Shown here piece by piece: positions 6,536-12,430 of a stretch of DNA of 64,000 bases; position 1 is the stretch's first letter; each line of letters begins with the position of its first letter. This DNA comes from a virus. Under the pieces are notes generated by a model. It was not told the origin of the DNA, did no database searches, and saw nothing but the letters and a program-made list of their open reading frames with translations. Position numbers and translations under genes: made by a program. The DNA lies in the IMG/VR virus record IMGVR_UViG_3300036770_005287, positions 21,033 through 85,032 of that record, one strand, 5' to 3'.

Positions 6536-6550
6536 TTAACGTTAGGATAA
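6536..6550 (+). promoter_or_regulatory. Asymmetric operator motif TTAACGTTAGGATAA
   Basis: One of 11 near-identical copies. Confidence 0.7.
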
Positions 6551-6964: not shown

Positions 6965-7235
6965 TGTTTTGCTCTGGCTTTTCGGCAGCGCGCTTGAGCA
7001 GTACCAGATAGCGCCGGCCCGGCTTCTTTGCCTCAGTCATATACCGCTTTGTCCGCTGTATACCATAGATGATATTTTTAGCTGTCACCCGGTCGATTTG
7101 CTCATACGGGCAGCCATCTTGTTTAAATAGTTCCAGGATATCTTTGCTTTCGTATCGACGGCCAATTTCCAGCTGCGACACCACCCAGCCAACGCGGCCA
7201 GGCCCTACTCGTTTCATCCGGTTTTTACGTTCCAA
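6882..7235 (-). CDS. Hypothetical protein
   Basis: 117-aa ORF with GAGGGG RBS. Confidence 0.6.
   Translation of the reverse strand: MERKNRMKRVGPGRVGWVVSQLEIGRRYESKDILELFKQDGCPYEQIDRVTAKNIIYGIQRTKRYMTEAKKPGRRYLVLLKRAAEKPEQNIVFEAFDRACRGLFSYFSARVYPNVEQ
6889..6903 (+). promoter_or_regulatory. Asymmetric operator motif TCAACGTTAGGATAA
   Basis: Exact consensus copy. Confidence 0.6.
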
Positions 7236-7320
7236 AACCCACCCCTCAGCAGAAAATGCAACACTGTCCCGAGCTGGCAGAGATCCGCCAGCCGGTTAAG
7301 GATATCAGCAATTTTCAGGG

Positions 7321-7611
7321 TCAGTAATGGTATCGGCACTGCACAATTGTTAAGCAGCCGGATTCAACCTGGTATACCAAGCGATCAGCATGTGTGATAC
7401 GCCGGGACCAGAAGCCAGACAAGTCGCCTTTGAGCGGTTCTGGCTTGCCCGTACCTGTGAATGGTGTCCGCAAACACTCTTCAATCAGCCGGTTAATTTT
7501 GTTCAGTATTTCAATGTCAAATTGCTGCCAGTGTAAATAATCATCCCAGGCATCATCGGACCAACAAATACTTGTATTAGCTACCGCCAGCGCGGCCTTT
7601 TTCTTGCTCAT
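7321..7611 (-). CDS. yoeB: Txe/YoeB family mRNA interferase toxin
   Basis: AWDDYLHW...RTPFTGTGKPEPLKGDLSGFWSRRITHADRLVY...CRYHY. Confidence 0.92.
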   Translation of the reverse strand: MSKKKAALAVANTSICWSDDAWDDYLHWQQFDIEILNKINRLIEECLRTPFTGTGKPEPLKGDLSGFWSRRITHADRLVYQVESGCLTIVQCRYHY

Positions 7612-7861
7612 GTTGATAAAGCTCTTTGGTTTTAGCTTTACCAGCCCGGACCTGAGCGATAGAACGGCGCAGTCTTTCCGCATTATGGGCACTGCCCAAC
7701 AGGTGCAGTGTTTCATTAATGCTGTTGTAGTCATCCAGACTAAGGATAACCACTGGATCTGCAGATTGGCGCGTAACCATCAGTGGCGCATGGTCGGCGC
7801 AAACCTCGTCCATCACTGTCTTTAAGCTGGCTCTAGCATCGCTATAAGACATTTGACGCAT
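7577..7861 (-). CDS. yefM: Phd/YefM family antitoxin
   Basis: MSYSDARASLKTVMDEV...SLDDYNSINETLHLL...NAERLRRSI. Confidence 0.92.
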   Translation of the reverse strand: MRQMSYSDARASLKTVMDEVCADHAPLMVTRQSADPVVILSLDDYNSINETLHLLGSAHNAERLRRSIAQVRAGKAKTKELYQHEQEKGRAGGS

Positions 7862-7922
7862 TTTCAACTTCCCCTCTCTCTTATGCGACTCATTGTACAA
7901 TATCTTGCACAATGCTGGTAGC

Positions 7923-8555
7923 TTAAAATTTAATCCCGTCGATTAATTTATCAACATCACTGAGGAACGTGCGCAGATAGTGATCCGTTGACGATAACGA
8001 CGCCTGGCCTAAGCTATCACGGACCTGGTGAATGGCGGCGCCATTTTTAACCATGGCAAGGGCAAAGGATTTGCGGAAACTGTGCGTACTGAGCTGGTAA
8101 TCAAGGCGCAGATCACAAGCGGCTTTTTTCAGCAGCAAATTCACCATCTGGCAGGTGTAAGGCTGACCAGGGCGAACATTGGATTCGAAAACCAGCTTTT
8201 TGCCGGCGTTGATATGGGCCGCGTCTTCAATGACCGCCCGGCACTGCTCATTTAAGTGCACAGTGAGTTTTGCCACTGCGCGGGCCGCGGCGTGCGACTT
8301 CCCTGCAGCCTGGCTTTTTGAATAAATTTTCTGCTGAATTATGATGACCGAGCTTCTAATCACGCCATTGACGATCACGTCTTCAAACTTGATTTGACTG
8401 GCGTCACTGTAGCGCAGTCCGGTCAGCGCCATGAATTCGAGCATGAGCGCGATAATCGGATTTGCCTGGTCAACGTGTTGGATGATTTTACGAAGTTGCC
8501 GGCCATCGCGTGCCGGGTATGCCTGCTTTGCTGCCATAAAGCCCCCTTTTGGCAA
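7923..8555 (-). CDS. Tyrosine recombinase (catalytic domain only), likely dimer resolvase
   Basis: TGLRYSD, THSFRK, LGQASLSSTDHY motifs; start may be ATG at 8537. Confidence 0.85.
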   Translation of the reverse strand: MPKGGFMAAKQAYPARDGRQLRKIIQHVDQANPIIALMLEFMALTGLRYSDASQIKFEDVIVNGVIRSSVIIIQQKIYSKSQAAGKSHAAARAVAKLTVHLNEQCRAVIEDAAHINAGKKLVFESNVRPGQPYTCQMVNLLLKKAACDLRLDYQLSTHSFRKSFALAMVKNGAAIHQVRDSLGQASLSSTDHYLRTFLSDVDKLIDGIKF

Positions 8556-8921: not shown

Positions 8922-9359
8922 ATGAATCCATATAACAGAGTGCTGCATCCAACAAACGGCACTGATATTTTCGGTGAAATGCCGGGTATCGATAAGAGCG
9001 GCATATTACTACCTCCTGGCCTAATCCATCTGGTTGAAGGTGAACACTACGGCCCTAACAGTGGTTTCGGTGTTGTGCACATTGTTGCCGAGCACGATCG
9101 GCAGATAGCCAGGAAGAACAAAGCGCTTGCGCAAATGAGCTCTCACGACAGGGTGCGTCATTACGTGGCGCAAATCCTCATCCGCAAAGCACAGATTTTC
9201 GTTGAACACGAAAAACCAAAGCGGCCTGTGGTGATCCACACAGCAAAAGGCGGCGTGATTCTGGAACTTAGAAGAAATGACGGGATCAGCTGGTATTCAG
9301 TGGTATCTGCGTACAACCGACAGAACCAACGCGGGGAATTGATGGCAAATTTGCTTTAG
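8922..9359 (+). CDS. Putative BECR-fold (PBECR-like) ribonuclease
   Basis: G.G..HI..EH motif and C-terminal WYSVVSAY strand. Confidence 0.55.
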   Translation: MNPYNRVLHPTNGTDIFGEMPGIDKSGILLPPGLIHLVEGEHYGPNSGFGVVHIVAEHDRQIARKNKALAQMSSHDRVRHYVAQILIRKAQIFVEHEKPKRPVVIHTAKGGVILELRRNDGISWYSVVSAYNRQNQRGELMANLL

Positions 9360-9364
9360 ACAAC

Positions 9365-9391
9365 AAAAAACGCGCTCAAGGCGCGTTCTTT
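9365..9391. terminator. Bidirectional intrinsic terminator
   Basis: AAAAAACGCGC-TCAAG-GCGCGTTCTTT. Confidence 0.75.
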
Positions 9392-9392
9392 G

Positions 9393-9583
9393 TGTAGGCG
9401 GTAGGCGCAGCGATTTCTTAGCTCTAAGGGTTCGACCTCCAAAACTAAACAATACCCTCCGTGGGGAATTACATATTTAGTCTTGCCACTACCAGCAGCT
9501 ACTCCGGATAAGCTGCCTGCCCATATGCGTACAAGGTACTGACCGGAACCCTTGCCGCAAACGCTCGTTTTACAGAGCCTACA
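9393..9583 (-). ncRNA. Putative ~190-nt structured ncRNA
   Basis: TTTACT-N17-TATTAT promoter (9617-9589); ends pair (UGUAGGC/GCCUACA); nested stems; followed by a terminator. Confidence 0.65.
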
Positions 9584-9707
9584 TGCAAATAATAGCCAGA
9601 TACTACTGTAAAGTAAATAGCAGATGCTAAATCAGCACATTAAGCACGAGTTATAGAACAATAATCGCTAATAGTTTCAGATCCGGCACTATCACCTAGT
9701 TTACTAC

Positions 9708-10391
9708 TCAAAAGTGCAAACTATTCTTTTTGTGGTCCAATCTGGCTTTTAGATAGTGAGCATCGAGCATCATTGACCAAACACCCAACAACATCAAGCA
9801 AGTGAATGCCGCACTTGTATACTTATGAATACTGTAGAAGAAGGGGGGATGCGACTGGCTAAACCACTCAGGGATTATCCAGTACGTCACCAACTCAGCA
9901 ACCAGGCAAAGAATAAAAATCGCTGACATCACCAGAATCATGCAAATTGCAACAACTTGCGGGATCCACTTCCTCTGGAACTCAACAGAAAACATCTGTT
10001 GTAGCTTTGGATTGCAGTGATAGGTAAATAGGATAAAACTAAGCAGGCAATTAAATAAGAAGTAAAACCCGAAGTACGCAACCTGCAGACTAATTTCCCG
10101 ACCATACAGCAAGTAGCTAACCGGTAATCGAACTGCATATGCCAACAGAATAATAACTAGCGCTGGTAATATCTCACGGCGAGATCGGTTCGCTGCTATC
10201 ACATAGCCCGCTATTCCAATCATATACATGGATTCCATGTATACGGTTGATGGAAAAACCCACCAGATGGCAAAGGAAAGAATAAAAGCTGTTATGTGGC
10301 CAAACAAAACTAAGTTTGAGCGTGTAAATACAACTAATCGTTCTATTCCCCAATTCATCTGGCGGGACATCCTTATCGCAACTTTAAACAA
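9708..10391 (-). CDS. Polytopic inner-membrane protein (~6 TM)
   Basis: 227 aa with alternating hydrophobic segments; starts 2 nt after the peptide gene. Confidence 0.8.
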   Translation of the reverse strand: MFKVAIRMSRQMNWGIERLVVFTRSNLVLFGHITAFILSFAIWWVFPSTVYMESMYMIGIAGYVIAANRSRREILPALVIILLAYAVRLPVSYLLYGREISLQVAYFGFYFLFNCLLSFILFTYHCNPKLQQMFSVEFQRKWIPQVVAICMILVMSAIFILCLVAELVTYWIIPEWFSQSHPPFFYSIHKYTSAAFTCLMLLGVWSMMLDAHYLKARLDHKKNSLHF

Positions 10392-10393
10392 AT

Positions 10394-10678
10394 TTATGAT
10401 TTTGACGGAGGCGTTGGCGGCCAGCCTGGCGGAACATCATCGGCCAAAGCTGTCGCTTCTGGGTCCGTTGGCGGCCACCCTGGCGGTACGTCGTCAGTTT
10501 GCGTTTCACCAGACTCAATTGATTGCAGCGCCTTTGCTTTGTCAGAGATAGTCACTGTGTCAATTGCTGTTGAACTTAGCGCAGCAGGCTGCTGCTTTGC
10601 CAGTTCGGTGTTTTTTTCAGTTGCTGCAGGCTGGTTTACTGCAGCAGTTGCATACGTGGCAGAGCCTTTAATCTCCAT
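10394..10678 (-). CDS. 94-aa peptide with FlgM-like leader and two DDVPPGWPPT cores
   Basis: ATG at 10678 with GAGGAAG RBS; DTVTISDKAKAL motif; duplicated decapeptide. Confidence 0.75.
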   Translation of the reverse strand: MEIKGSATYATAAVNQPAATEKNTELAKQQPAALSSTAIDTVTISDKAKALQSIESGETQTDDVPPGWPPTDPEATALADDVPPGWPPTPPSKS

Positions 10679-10934
10679 CGCGCTTTCTTCCTCGGTTTTC
10701 TCGATAATGTTTTTCAAACTCTCGGGGGACAAGTAAGCGCCACATTAATCCCCAGCTGGGCCTCGTTGCCTTTACCCATTCTTTAACAATTGTTAAAGAT
10801 GGCTCCGCTTCACCGTTTTCCAGCCGGTAAACATATGACCTGTGAATGCCAATTTTGAGCGCCAATTCCTCGACATTTAAATTGGCCTTTTTCCTCATCG
10901 CCCTAAGAATTTCGCCAGTGCTTTCTACTGCCAT
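10668..10934 (-). CDS. XRE-family HTH transcriptional regulator
   Basis: LRAMRKKANLNVEELALKIGIHRSYVYRLENGEAEPS. Confidence 0.9.
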   Translation of the reverse strand: MAVESTGEILRAMRKKANLNVEELALKIGIHRSYVYRLENGEAEPSLTIVKEWVKATRPSWGLMWRLLVPREFEKHYRENRGRKRDGD

Positions 10935-11046
10935 GACAACTACACCCGCCCGGATCTGTATATTTTTTTAATTCGCTCAAAAAATGTCCTGATATCAAAG
11001 TTTCGTAGGAAAAATATCAGAAAAAAACGCATAATTTGAGCGTTTT

Positions 11047-11062
11047 GTCGCCTAAATGCGAC
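11047..11062. promoter_or_regulatory. Possible XRE operator GTCGC-N6-GCGAC
   Basis: Palindrome in the divergent XRE/c1 intergenic region; related TTGTCGC half-site near 11079. Confidence 0.35.
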
Positions 11063-11134
11063 GTGAAAAATAATACAGTTGTCGCAGTGATCTGGACAGG
11101 CATTTTTAACGATTTTTGCATTAACCAGCTATGT

Positions 11135-11149
11135 ATATCCTAACGTTAA
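11135..11149 (-). promoter_or_regulatory. Asymmetric operator motif upstream of c1 operon
   Basis: ATATCCTAACGTTAA on + strand. Confidence 0.7.
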
Positions 11150-11280
11150 TGACATCAAAATGAATGCCTGACATGAATAACAGATTTTTACACCCGTAAA
11201 TTTGATAAATATTTTCATCTTGATTAATAGCGTTATTAATCATTAATAATGTCTGTGCTATAGTTGTTGCGAGGATTGCA

Positions 11281-11670
11281 GTGAACGAGTTCAAAAACAC
11301 CCAACAGGAATTATCTACAGTTTTAGGCGCCGAAGTTATTACCGGAGCATTAAGAGACAACCTAATAGGGTACTCTACGGATAGTGCGCTTCAGATGATA
11401 GAAGGGTTGAGACACCAAAGCCTGGAGGAAAACAACCTTCTTTTTGGTGCTTGCCACGTTTTGTTGGATTTGTTACCAGCTAAGTTGAGGGACTTAGACG
11501 GCATTGAACTTGCCATTGCAGACCTTATCGCTACACACACTGACTGTCTGAGGCAGCGTGTGTTATTGCTGCAATCAGAGCAGAACAACCTAGGGGGCGC
11601 ATCTGCTGATGTATCAAAGTTACAACGACATCAAACTTGCGAAGCAATCATGCGAACAGCTTGCTCTTGA
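11281..11670 (+). CDS. Hypothetical protein in Coi/Imc position upstream of C1
   Basis: GTG start with GAGGA RBS; acidic; assignment by position only. Confidence 0.55.
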   Translation: MNEFKNTQQELSTVLGAEVITGALRDNLIGYSTDSALQMIEGLRHQSLEENNLLFGACHVLLDLLPAKLRDLDGIELAIADLIATHTDCLRQRVLLLQSEQNNLGGASADVSKLQRHQTCEAIMRTACS

Positions 11671-12430
11671 GCTGCACGCTCGATTTTCAGACCATGTAAC
11701 ATATCGTGAAAAACTACCGGACGGCAGCTATCGCCGTCCTGTGATAGTCCTACGCAACCAAGCAGAGTTAGATGATGTCATAAAGGTTCGGGATGAAATC
11801 ACCCGGATCCGTGACCAGGTGCTCGAATCGACGGGCAGCTCTGTCCGCTTTACTGAGCCACGTATCGTTGAAAACGTTCTGCTGTATAAAGTGTGGGTCA
11901 ACACTGAGCGCAGCAGCAGTTATAACCAGACTTCACGGCTTGAGATTATCCATAACATTAAACAGCGATTAGAGCGGGCCAACCGCAACGCAGATAATGA
12001 CATTGCTCAAATGACAGCCTTGCTACTGCGTAAAGAACTGAAGTTTTTCGAAGGTGAAACAGAAGAGTACTACCGCGCACGGACAATTGGCTTGCCATCT
12101 TCTGATGCAGAGTGCCACCTGGCGAACCATGGCCGCGAGAAGATCAAAATATCTGAAGCCGGCTTATTTATCGTTGGTCCAAATTTTGACATACCCCGCG
12201 GCGACTTTCCTGAAGGACGAAAGCCACGCAAACCACGAGCAAGCGTCTATGACGGCCTTGAACAAATTCAGTACTCAGGTGCAGTCAGTAGCGTGCTGTA
12301 TCGGGAAAGCGAAGTAATTGCAGCCAAGCGCCGGGCCGGCTTTGATGACGAGAAGCAGGAGCAGATTAAGAACATGAAAAAATCTGTGTCTCGCCGCAGT
12401 CCTGGCGCGCCGCCAGAACACCCGATCTGA
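11609..12430 (+). CDS. c1: P1 C1-like primary repressor
   Basis: DGSYRRPVIVL, YRARTIG, AGLFIV, ASVYDGLEQI and LYR blocks parallel P1 C1 as recalled; convergent with the pac operon as in P1. Confidence 0.75.
   Translation: MYQSYNDIKLAKQSCEQLALELHARFSDHVTYREKLPDGSYRRPVIVLRNQAELDDVIKVRDEITRIRDQVLESTGSSVRFTEPRIVENVLLYKVWVNTERSSSYNQTSRLEIIHNIKQRLERANRNADNDIAQMTALLLRKELKFFEGETEEYYRARTIGLPSSDAECHLANHGREKIKISEAGLFIVGPNFDIPRGDFPEGRKPRKPRASVYDGLEQIQYSGAVSSVLYRESEVIAAKRRAGFDDEKQEQIKNMKKSVSRRSPGAPPEHPI

Follow-up and report, generated by a model that had tools for sequence, protein, structure and literature searches.

A three-gene operon of a putative P1/D6-like phage-plasmid pairs a small protein with a membrane protein: a possible maintenance or exclusion module

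The window analysed here, a stretch of 64,000 nucleotides (nt) within an 85,032-bp IMG/VR virus record (IMGVR_UViG_3300036770_005287, terminal repeats present), carries an operon of three genes encoding an XRE-family regulator, a small protein with a duplicated proline- and tryptophan-rich (Pro/Trp) tail, and a protein with six transmembrane segments (6-TM). The explanation that we favour for this trio, with a probability of about one in three, is a self-regulated pair of small protein and membrane effector that serves maintenance or exclusion. It is proposed that the XRE protein would autoregulate the operon and that the small protein would stay in the cytoplasm. Its Pro/Trp tail or tails would dock on the conserved cytoplasmic face of the cognate membrane protein, and the docked small protein would restrain a membrane-acting effector. 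In this way the plasmid-prophage would be maintained, or other phages would be excluded. The order of regulator, putative antidote and putative effector would match that of three-gene addiction or abortive-infection cassettes. By the membership tests run, the module matches no known system; the logic of regulator, small protein and membrane protein has precedents. The slot next to the immunity region of P1-like phage-plasmids appears to hold a conserved module with two new families, and, if a function is found, one of them would be a new family of membrane-based effectors or sensors in phage-plasmid biology.

Organization, linkage and joint divergence of the trio

An earlier reading of the sequence letters, referred to below as the original prediction, had described three tightly coupled genes, and both the open reading frames (ORFs) and direct reading of the minus strand agree with it. 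The ATG of the small-protein gene is preceded by GAGGAAG, and the gene overlaps the 3' end of the XRE gene by 11 nt. The membrane ORF is open to a TTG at 10391 (9708-10391), but its likely start is the ATG at 10358, 35 nt past the small-ORF stop. As far as gene order and spacing can tell, this layout shows that the three genes are co-transcribed and translationally coupled. RNA folding of the 3' end of the small ORF and the start of the membrane gene (z = 0.31) gave no sign of an arrest or attenuation structure. The HTH_3 match of the regulator spans residues 10-56 of its 88 amino acids (aa).

The linkage of homologues, whose lack the original prediction had named as a ground for refutation, holds as well, the trio being found in the same order at three of the three loci with context. 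Besides the window, these are an 84-kb P1-like phage (L003), whose PacB is 73% identical to that of the window, and a 94-kb marine scaffold (L006). In L003, pacB is followed by an SspA-like gene, a c1-position gene and a coi-position gene; the trio comes next in divergent orientation, with a small protein of 77 aa, and beyond it lie a MazEF-like pair and a small recombinase. On the marine scaffold, XRE is followed by a small protein of 80 aa and by the membrane protein, whose gene overlaps the preceding one (ATGA). The XRE homologues heading these trios are 45% (L003) and 38% (L006) identical to that of the window. Within 10 kb in L006, nothing besides the trio matches the window, and no c1-like gene is found within 4 kb of it. 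Because this scaffold shares the gene order but no other match, the trio appears to be a portable module that moves as a unit; because its trio does not stand beside a c1-like gene, the trio can be regarded as an add-on and not as part of the P1-type switch. A short metagenome contig starting at the membrane gene (L004) has ORFs identical to those of L003, and equal-sized contigs (20,753 and 5,937 bp) suggest two more small-protein/membrane pairs, P0003/P0044 and P0004/P0047. IMG/VR scans with sub-alignments or single members returned only the contig of L003, and blastn of 9400-11300 found nothing in the phage and plasmid collections.

Between the window and L003, identity is 39% for the c1-position protein, about 35% for the membrane protein and 27% for the small protein, to be set beside the values for PacB and XRE given above. 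Over the entire trio, a soil contig of 84,929 bp matches the window at 93% identity; in its membrane gene, 18 of the 27 listed differences fall at third codon positions, which places this gene under purifying selection. In an isolate contig of 16,750 bp, identity is 89% over the XRE gene and 96% over the final 30 codons of the membrane gene together with the downstream spacer; the segment 9969-10640 (about 670 nt), which covers the small-protein gene and the greater part of the membrane gene, gives way to 639 nt that lie below the 80% alignment level. In the contigs of this one run, the gene for the small protein and the bulk of that for the membrane protein have diverged jointly, with conserved sequence on either side. 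This cassette-like swap suggests a cognate specificity pair. Such co-divergence is the pattern expected of toxin/antidote, signal/receptor or exclusion/self-protection pairs.

The small protein and its likeness to FlgM

The two DDVPPGWPPT copies described in the original prediction were recovered by a repeat search as 30-nt units that are 87% identical and 54 nt apart (Table 1), and the four differences between them all fall at third codon positions and are all synonymous. In this core, 23 of the 90 possible single changes are synonymous, and four synonymous changes out of four would arise by chance with a probability of about 0.004; the duplicated Pro/Trp tail is thus apparently under purifying selection. 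The statement that no Sec signal is present also holds, since the maximal Kyte-Doolittle hydropathy over 15 residues is 0.85 and there is no hydrophobic core. The AlphaFold2 (AF2) model of the small protein (pTM 0.18) is unstructured except for a sole helix, residues 46-55, which starts inside the DTVTISDKAKAL motif, the region of highest pLDDT in the model.

A profile built from three small proteins retrieved 13 more sequences, and the family alignment comprises 14 sequences. Its members have conserved N-terminal ends (MQVTNN.., MEIKGS.., MAIDGLGQ..) followed by a drifting stretch rich in Ala, Thr and Gln, then DTVT[IL]S.EAKAL, a short linker and a C-terminal [LP]P.WP[PT]. Across the 14 sequences, D40, V42 and S45 of the DTVTISDKAKAL motif are invariant, and A48 and L51 nearly so. 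A 90% identical homologue (P0037) has two DDVPPGWPPT cores and carries every change within its first 48 residues, and P0044 has two DGDPPGWPPTP cores. The alignment shows a C-terminal half (the predicted helix and the PxWP[PT] motif, duplicated here) that is conserved, with a leader that drifts. The core copies are identical within one peptide and lineage-specific between the window and P0044; such paired cores would fit a motif matched to a partner. The family profile found no FlgM structure among PDB sequences (best E 1.3, to an unrelated protein), and the search of the small protein against a protein atlas gave only leads below 0.9.

FlgM is an anti-sigma-28 factor exported through the flagellar type III apparatus; it binds the sigma factor and is released by export. 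The original prediction had called the D.V.IS..A..L pattern typical of FlgM-like export substrates, and part of this remark stands. The likeness is weak and recurrent: with TIGR03824, the FlgM model, 11 of the 14 members give matches at E<=1 (best E 4.9e-4), every one of them over the N-terminal two thirds and far below the cut-off, and those to the Pfam model of FlgM are weaker still. The small protein of the window itself matches positions 1-64 of the 98 of this model (E 0.0029, 18.4 bits against a cut-off of 40.75) and reaches 13.8 bits against the 25-bit cut-off of PF04316. With neither curated cut-off reached, membership of the FlgM family was rejected. The likeness lies in a disordered N-terminal half and in D.V.[IL]S..A..L at a similar distance from the N-terminus. 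The proteins differ in that the C-terminal third of the FlgM model is missing here, with the PxWP[PT] tail in its stead, and in that the small-protein gene sits in a phage operon and not in a flagellar one. The C-terminal sigma-28-binding helices of FlgM were looked for and rejected, since the model is unmatched after position 64 and a single helix is followed by the Pro-rich tail.

These observations bear on the explanation that the small protein is a FlgM mimic, titrating sigma-28 or clogging flagellar export, so that the lysogen would lose its flagella and resist flagellum-dependent phages, with the membrane protein assisting or anchoring it. The FlgM-like head and D.V.[IL]S..A..L do sit where the sigma-28-binding region of FlgM begins. 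However, a mimic would have to do without the C-terminal third, which the Pro/Trp tail replaces, and the tight co-divergence with a dedicated membrane protein would stay unexplained. This explanation is considered very unlikely.

A chromosomal protein of 65-68 aa with the same head and DTVTLS.EAL, and no PxWP tail, was also noticed in Pseudoalteromonas lipolytica (L008 4001-5794) and at the loci L010 and L012-L018. In about nine Pseudoalteromonas species, two or three membrane proteins of about 170 aa, paralogues arranged in tandem, follow it downstream of argH. The paralogues were tried as relatives of the window membrane family and rejected, with an hhalign probability below 1%.

The membrane protein and its family

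The claim of about six transmembrane segments is confirmed by the AF2 model, which consists of six long helices at a pLDDT of 83.6, and by hydropathy. Lys and Arg are abundant in loops 2 and 4 and in the C-terminal tail throughout 33 family members and, by the positive-inside rule, the protein would therefore have both termini inside (N-in/C-in). Motifs of the window clade include NxxRRE[IL]LP in loop 2, YH, IPQV where TM5 begins, a Glu within TM5, PFFY in loop 5 and WSMMLDAHYLKARL at the end of TM6. In the 33-sequence alignment, Q134 is the sole invariant residue, and P65, P133, E155 and W194 reach 90% conservation. The conserved features, among them NxxRRE[IL]LP and IPQ in the Lys/Arg-rich loops and a nearly invariant C-terminal helix, would lie mostly on the cytoplasmic face, and such inward-facing motifs would fit an intracellular partner better than an external signal. 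Co-folding of the small protein with the membrane protein scored 0.03 against a mark of 0.32, which speaks neither for nor against binding.

The family is rare. Six homologues were found among 5.8 billion clusters, and an exhaustive profile search retrieved 29 representatives among 1.84 billion proteins. Their sizes are about 150-230 aa, apart from P0014, a fragment of 106 aa, and P0032, a weak match of 532 aa with repetitive sequence, and none of the 29 representatives has a fused domain. No member of the family occurs in 50,697 phage and 72,556 plasmid records, tblastn with the membrane protein and two distant family members found nothing in the phage or plasmid collections, and 400 gammaproteobacterial genomes gave at most one, weak match. 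This rarity would fit rare mobile cargo.

No family was assigned by Pfam (E<=0.1), PHROG or NCBIfam. In PADLOC, only a 2TM effector model came up (E 0.014, 12.6 bits), and no defence or toxin-antitoxin family fitted. Fold searches led to generic helical bundles: the best Foldseek match in the PDB had E 0.19, the best VIA-align hits (Z 10.1) were designed bundles, BFVD gave unnamed proteins (best E 0.19) and the protein atlas only hypothetical clusters. On the searches made, the small protein and the membrane protein both appear to be undescribed families.

Export and signalling as alternatives

The original prediction had gone further and proposed export of the small protein by a non-Sec route (e.g., flagellar type III), trimming to a Pro/Trp peptide and sensing of this peptide from outside by the 6-TM protein, as an arbitrium-like or kin signal. 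This model draws on the resemblance of 11 of the 14 members to the secreted N-terminal part of FlgM, on one family member that weakly matches a family of flagellum-secreted proteins, and on an N-terminal end that is conserved inside an otherwise drifting leader. The core is repeated with only synonymous differences, and is repeated in a second lineage too. The agr and comQXP loci are polymorphic loci of a peptide and its membrane partner, and the cassette-like divergence of peptide and partner seen here is of the kind found there. The aromatic PFFY motif is conserved in a loop that would be periplasmic. However, every FlgM score is below the family cut-offs, the operon is without a sensor domain in its regulator, a processing enzyme or an oligopeptide-binding partner, and the most conserved motifs of the membrane protein would lie on the cytoplasmic face. 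Export of this kind would also need a flagellated host; the sequence comes from a subsurface metagenome. The model is judged unlikely.

The arbitrium-like circuit in particular was not borne out, as the XRE protein is a bare 88-aa helix-turn-helix (HTH) that lacks any sensor domain, and no signal sequence is present in the peptide. The likeness to arbitrium (AimR-AimP-AimX) is that a small peptide gene adjoins a regulator in a temperate phage, and the likeness to agrBDC and comQXP is that peptide and membrane partner form a hypervariable segment between conserved flanks. The module differs from all of these in having no tetratricopeptide-repeat (TPR) receptor, signal peptide or kinase, and no homology to AgrB or ComQ. 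Three candidate assignments were rejected. A TPR receptor of the arbitrium/RRNPP type (AimR, about 380 aa) is not compatible with an HTH-only XRE of 88 aa, NF038310 being reached only at E 0.11 and by the HTH of the L006 protein; a Sec-signal precursor of the arbitrium type is contradicted by the hydropathy maximum of the small protein; and maturation of the AgrB/AgrD type had no Pfam match, the YHC motif of the window clade not being kept family-wide.

A fuller chain of events can be imagined, in which a FlgM-like pro-peptide passes the flagellar export gate, is trimmed to a PxWPP core and is read by a co-evolving 6-TM receptor that frees or traps XRE and so biases the repressor operon. It is a long shot, as improbable as the FlgM mimic. 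If it were true, it would mean peptide 'pherotype' communication for lysogeny or kin exclusion outside Firmicutes, in a Gram-negative phage-plasmid.

Repeated cores and a drifting leader would also be expected if the small protein were a modified or bacteriocin-like precursor with two cores, with the membrane protein as the enzyme that modifies or exports it or as the protein that confers immunity. A small, polytopic membrane protein would be typical of immunity proteins. However, neither a double-glycine leader nor any other known type is present, the vicinity lacks a maturation enzyme and an ABC exporter, and there is no conserved His/Cys set across the membrane family as in a peptidase or transferase; this is taken as the least probable of the explanations considered.

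Maintenance or exclusion, and its precedents

The favoured explanation, maintenance or exclusion by a small protein and a membrane effector, finds its closest comparison in addiction cassettes of the omega-epsilon-zeta type and in prophage exclusion or abortive-infection operons. These share with the trio a regulator, a small, labile-looking protein and a larger gene in the effector position, as well as the coupled operon, the plasmid-prophage carrier, toxin-antitoxin-like neighbours and varied genomic contexts. They differ from the trio in that no relation in sequence or fold was found to a known toxin, antitoxin or exclusion protein, the 6-TM protein forming an unnamed family. The slot that the trio occupies also collects toxin-antitoxin pairs. 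In phage D6, the interval between c1 and the recombinase is empty, and in the window and L003 the same interval holds the trio and a toxin-antitoxin-like pair; because of this difference, the interval appears to be a variable slot for accessory genes.

Several points weigh against this explanation. There is no sign that the membrane protein does harm or excludes other phages, and it resembles no known effector. An antidote role leaves the FlgM-like head with its conserved N-terminus unexplained. The cytoplasmic placement of the motifs has the positive-inside rule as its only ground, and the contigs that reveal the cassette-like divergence all come from a single run. Moreover, the divergent placement next to the repressor in two phages could mean a regulatory and not an accessory role.

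A second precedent is SdpR/SdpI/SdpC of Bacillus subtilis, in which a repressor, a polytopic membrane protein and a peptide partner are likewise joined in one circuit. It differs in that SdpR is of the ArsR type and not XRE, that SdpC is exported by Sec from a separate operon, and that the host is Gram-positive. Membership of the SdpI family was rejected, with no Pfam match at E<=0.1 and a regulator of the XRE type. The SdpI family combines immunity with signal transduction (PMC2910880).

Table 1. Features of the trio and of the adjoining control region, in window positions
Feature	Position	Strand	Basis
Membrane protein, 6-TM, inner-membrane, 216 aa from ATG at 10358	9708-10358	-	AF2 and hydropathy
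Small protein, 94 aa, leaderless, mostly disordered	10394-10678	-	ORF with GAGGAAG Shine-Dalgarno
Core copy 2, DDVPPGWPPT, four synonymous changes relative to copy 1	10412-10441	-	repeat search and direct reading
Core copy 1, DDVPPGWPPT	10466-10495	-	repeat search and direct reading
DTVTISDKAKAL motif, residues 40-51, family mid-motif	10526-10561	-	conserved in 14-sequence alignment
XRE-family regulator (helix-turn-helix) of 88 aa, encoded first in the operon	10668-10934	-	Pfam HTH_3 E 3.1e-14; PHROG transcriptional regulators
Shared AT-rich control region of the XRE operon and the divergent c1-position operon	10935-11280	.	sequence reading
Copy of dispersed motif ATCCTAACGTT[AG]A, a putative operator for the phage repressor	11137-11149	+	motif count

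Genomic setting, control region and the lysis-lysogeny switch

The PacB protein of the window shares 46-50% identity with its counterparts in phages D6 and P1, and an ORF of 2270 aa resembles P1 DarB in size only. Because of this PacB identity and the DarB-sized ORF, the source can be considered a distant P1/D6-like phage-plasmid. The original prediction had placed the trio divergently from a c1 operon. This is correct as regards position, a 273-aa protein (11609-12430) being encoded where D6 has c1; the similarity to C1 itself is only a pairwise match with E 0.01, and tblastn of phage records with the 273-aa protein gave no match. A P1-type immC region is marked by a C1 homologue convergent with pacB and by several dispersed, asymmetric operators. 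The D6-like c1 position, the related PacB and a dispersed motif in 11 copies would fit such a region, but the faint C1 match and the negative tblastn result speak against it.

The window contains 11 copies of the 13-nt motif ATCCTAACGTT[AG]A (at 6536, 6889, 11137, 15738, 18386, 22614, 25620, 34857, 40239, 58375 and 62750) against 0.87 expected, and 0 of 100 shuffles reach this number. The copies are mostly intergenic, upstream of pacA, rep, orn and darB-like genes, and resemble in this the dispersed C1 operators of P1; they are probably the operator set of a C1-type repressor of this phage. The copy in the control region lies nearer to a promoter-like site on the c1 side, and none is found in the 200 bp adjoining XRE. 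On the XRE side, an inverted repeat, CTGATAT-N18-ATATCAG (11014-11020 / 10989-10995), is situated 55-85 nt before the XRE gene begins. The equivalent position in L003 is taken by a longer inverted repeat, with 12-nt arms, around a good promoter, TTGATA-N16-TATAAA. A consensus scan found no good sigma-70 promoter for the XRE operon of the window.

This arrangement is the main ground for another explanation, in which the trio is an extra input into the lysis-lysogeny switch. The small protein would act on the C1-position repressor or on XRE, much as P1 Coi and the small proteins of the prophage-inducing modules discussed below act on repressors, and the membrane protein would hold or release it on an envelope cue; alternatively, the membrane protein would sequester XRE in the manner of SdpI and SdpR. 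It is supported by the divergence of the trio from the c1-position operon across a 345-bp control region common to both, in the window and in L003, and by the copy of the dispersed operator-like motif within that region. The trio has also diverged at a rate similar to that of the c1-position gene (27-45% versus 39% identity, with PacB at 73%), and FlgM, which the small protein weakly resembles, is itself a factor-binding protein released by export. Documented precedents are the modules of a transcription factor and a small ORF (TF-smORF) that induce prophages (PMC10432266) and the combined immunity and signalling of SdpI (PMC2910880). In TF-smORF modules, the transcription factor activates a neighbouring small-protein gene, and there is no membrane gene (PMC10432266). 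The likeness of the trio to these modules (Silpe et al. 2023, PMC10432266) and to P1 Coi is that of a phage transcription factor beside a small-protein gene near the master repressor of a plasmid-like prophage, and with the TF-smORF modules only this neighbourhood is shared. The trio differs in that the small ORF overlaps the XRE gene and would be co-transcribed with it, that a membrane gene follows, and that no homology to Coi, SdpI or SdpR was found in Pfam, PHROG or NCBIfam. In addition, the marine scaffold carries the trio with no c1-like gene close by. A role as switch input, the main rival of the favoured explanation, is rather unlikely.

Several features of the surroundings can be added. 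In the soil and isolate contigs, diverged sequence of equal length takes the place of about 110 nt of the control region (11110-11220), among them the operator-like copy, with similar sequence kept on both flanks; the segment may determine immunity specificity. Between the trio and the small recombinase, the window has a YefM/YoeB-like pair at 7321-7912, judged from translations alone, and L003 has a MazE/MazF-like pair at the equivalent position (7004-7572), so that the toxin-antitoxin cargo differs between the phages. The recombinase (window 7923-8555, L003 7592-8206) is a short tyrosine recombinase of 204-210 aa (Phage_integrase E 6e-19) in the place occupied by Dre in D6 and Cre in P1; the D6 recombinase has 343 aa. 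Downstream of the membrane gene and within the accessory slot, 8922-9707 contains a 145-aa ORF, for which no family match was found in Pfam, PHROG or PADLOC, and then a non-coding spacer of about 340 nt. The spacer, 96% conserved in the isolate contig, is also covered by a short wastewater contig; it has no counterpart in L003 and no Rfam match, the Rfam scan of 9000-11400 having returned zero matches. Finally, an AT-rich palindromic stretch lies just upstream of the coi-position ORF at 11224-11261 in the window (TGATTAATA) and at 5206-5242 in L003 (TATTAATCA); it is 84% conserved over 38 nt and is the sole conserved piece of the two control regions.

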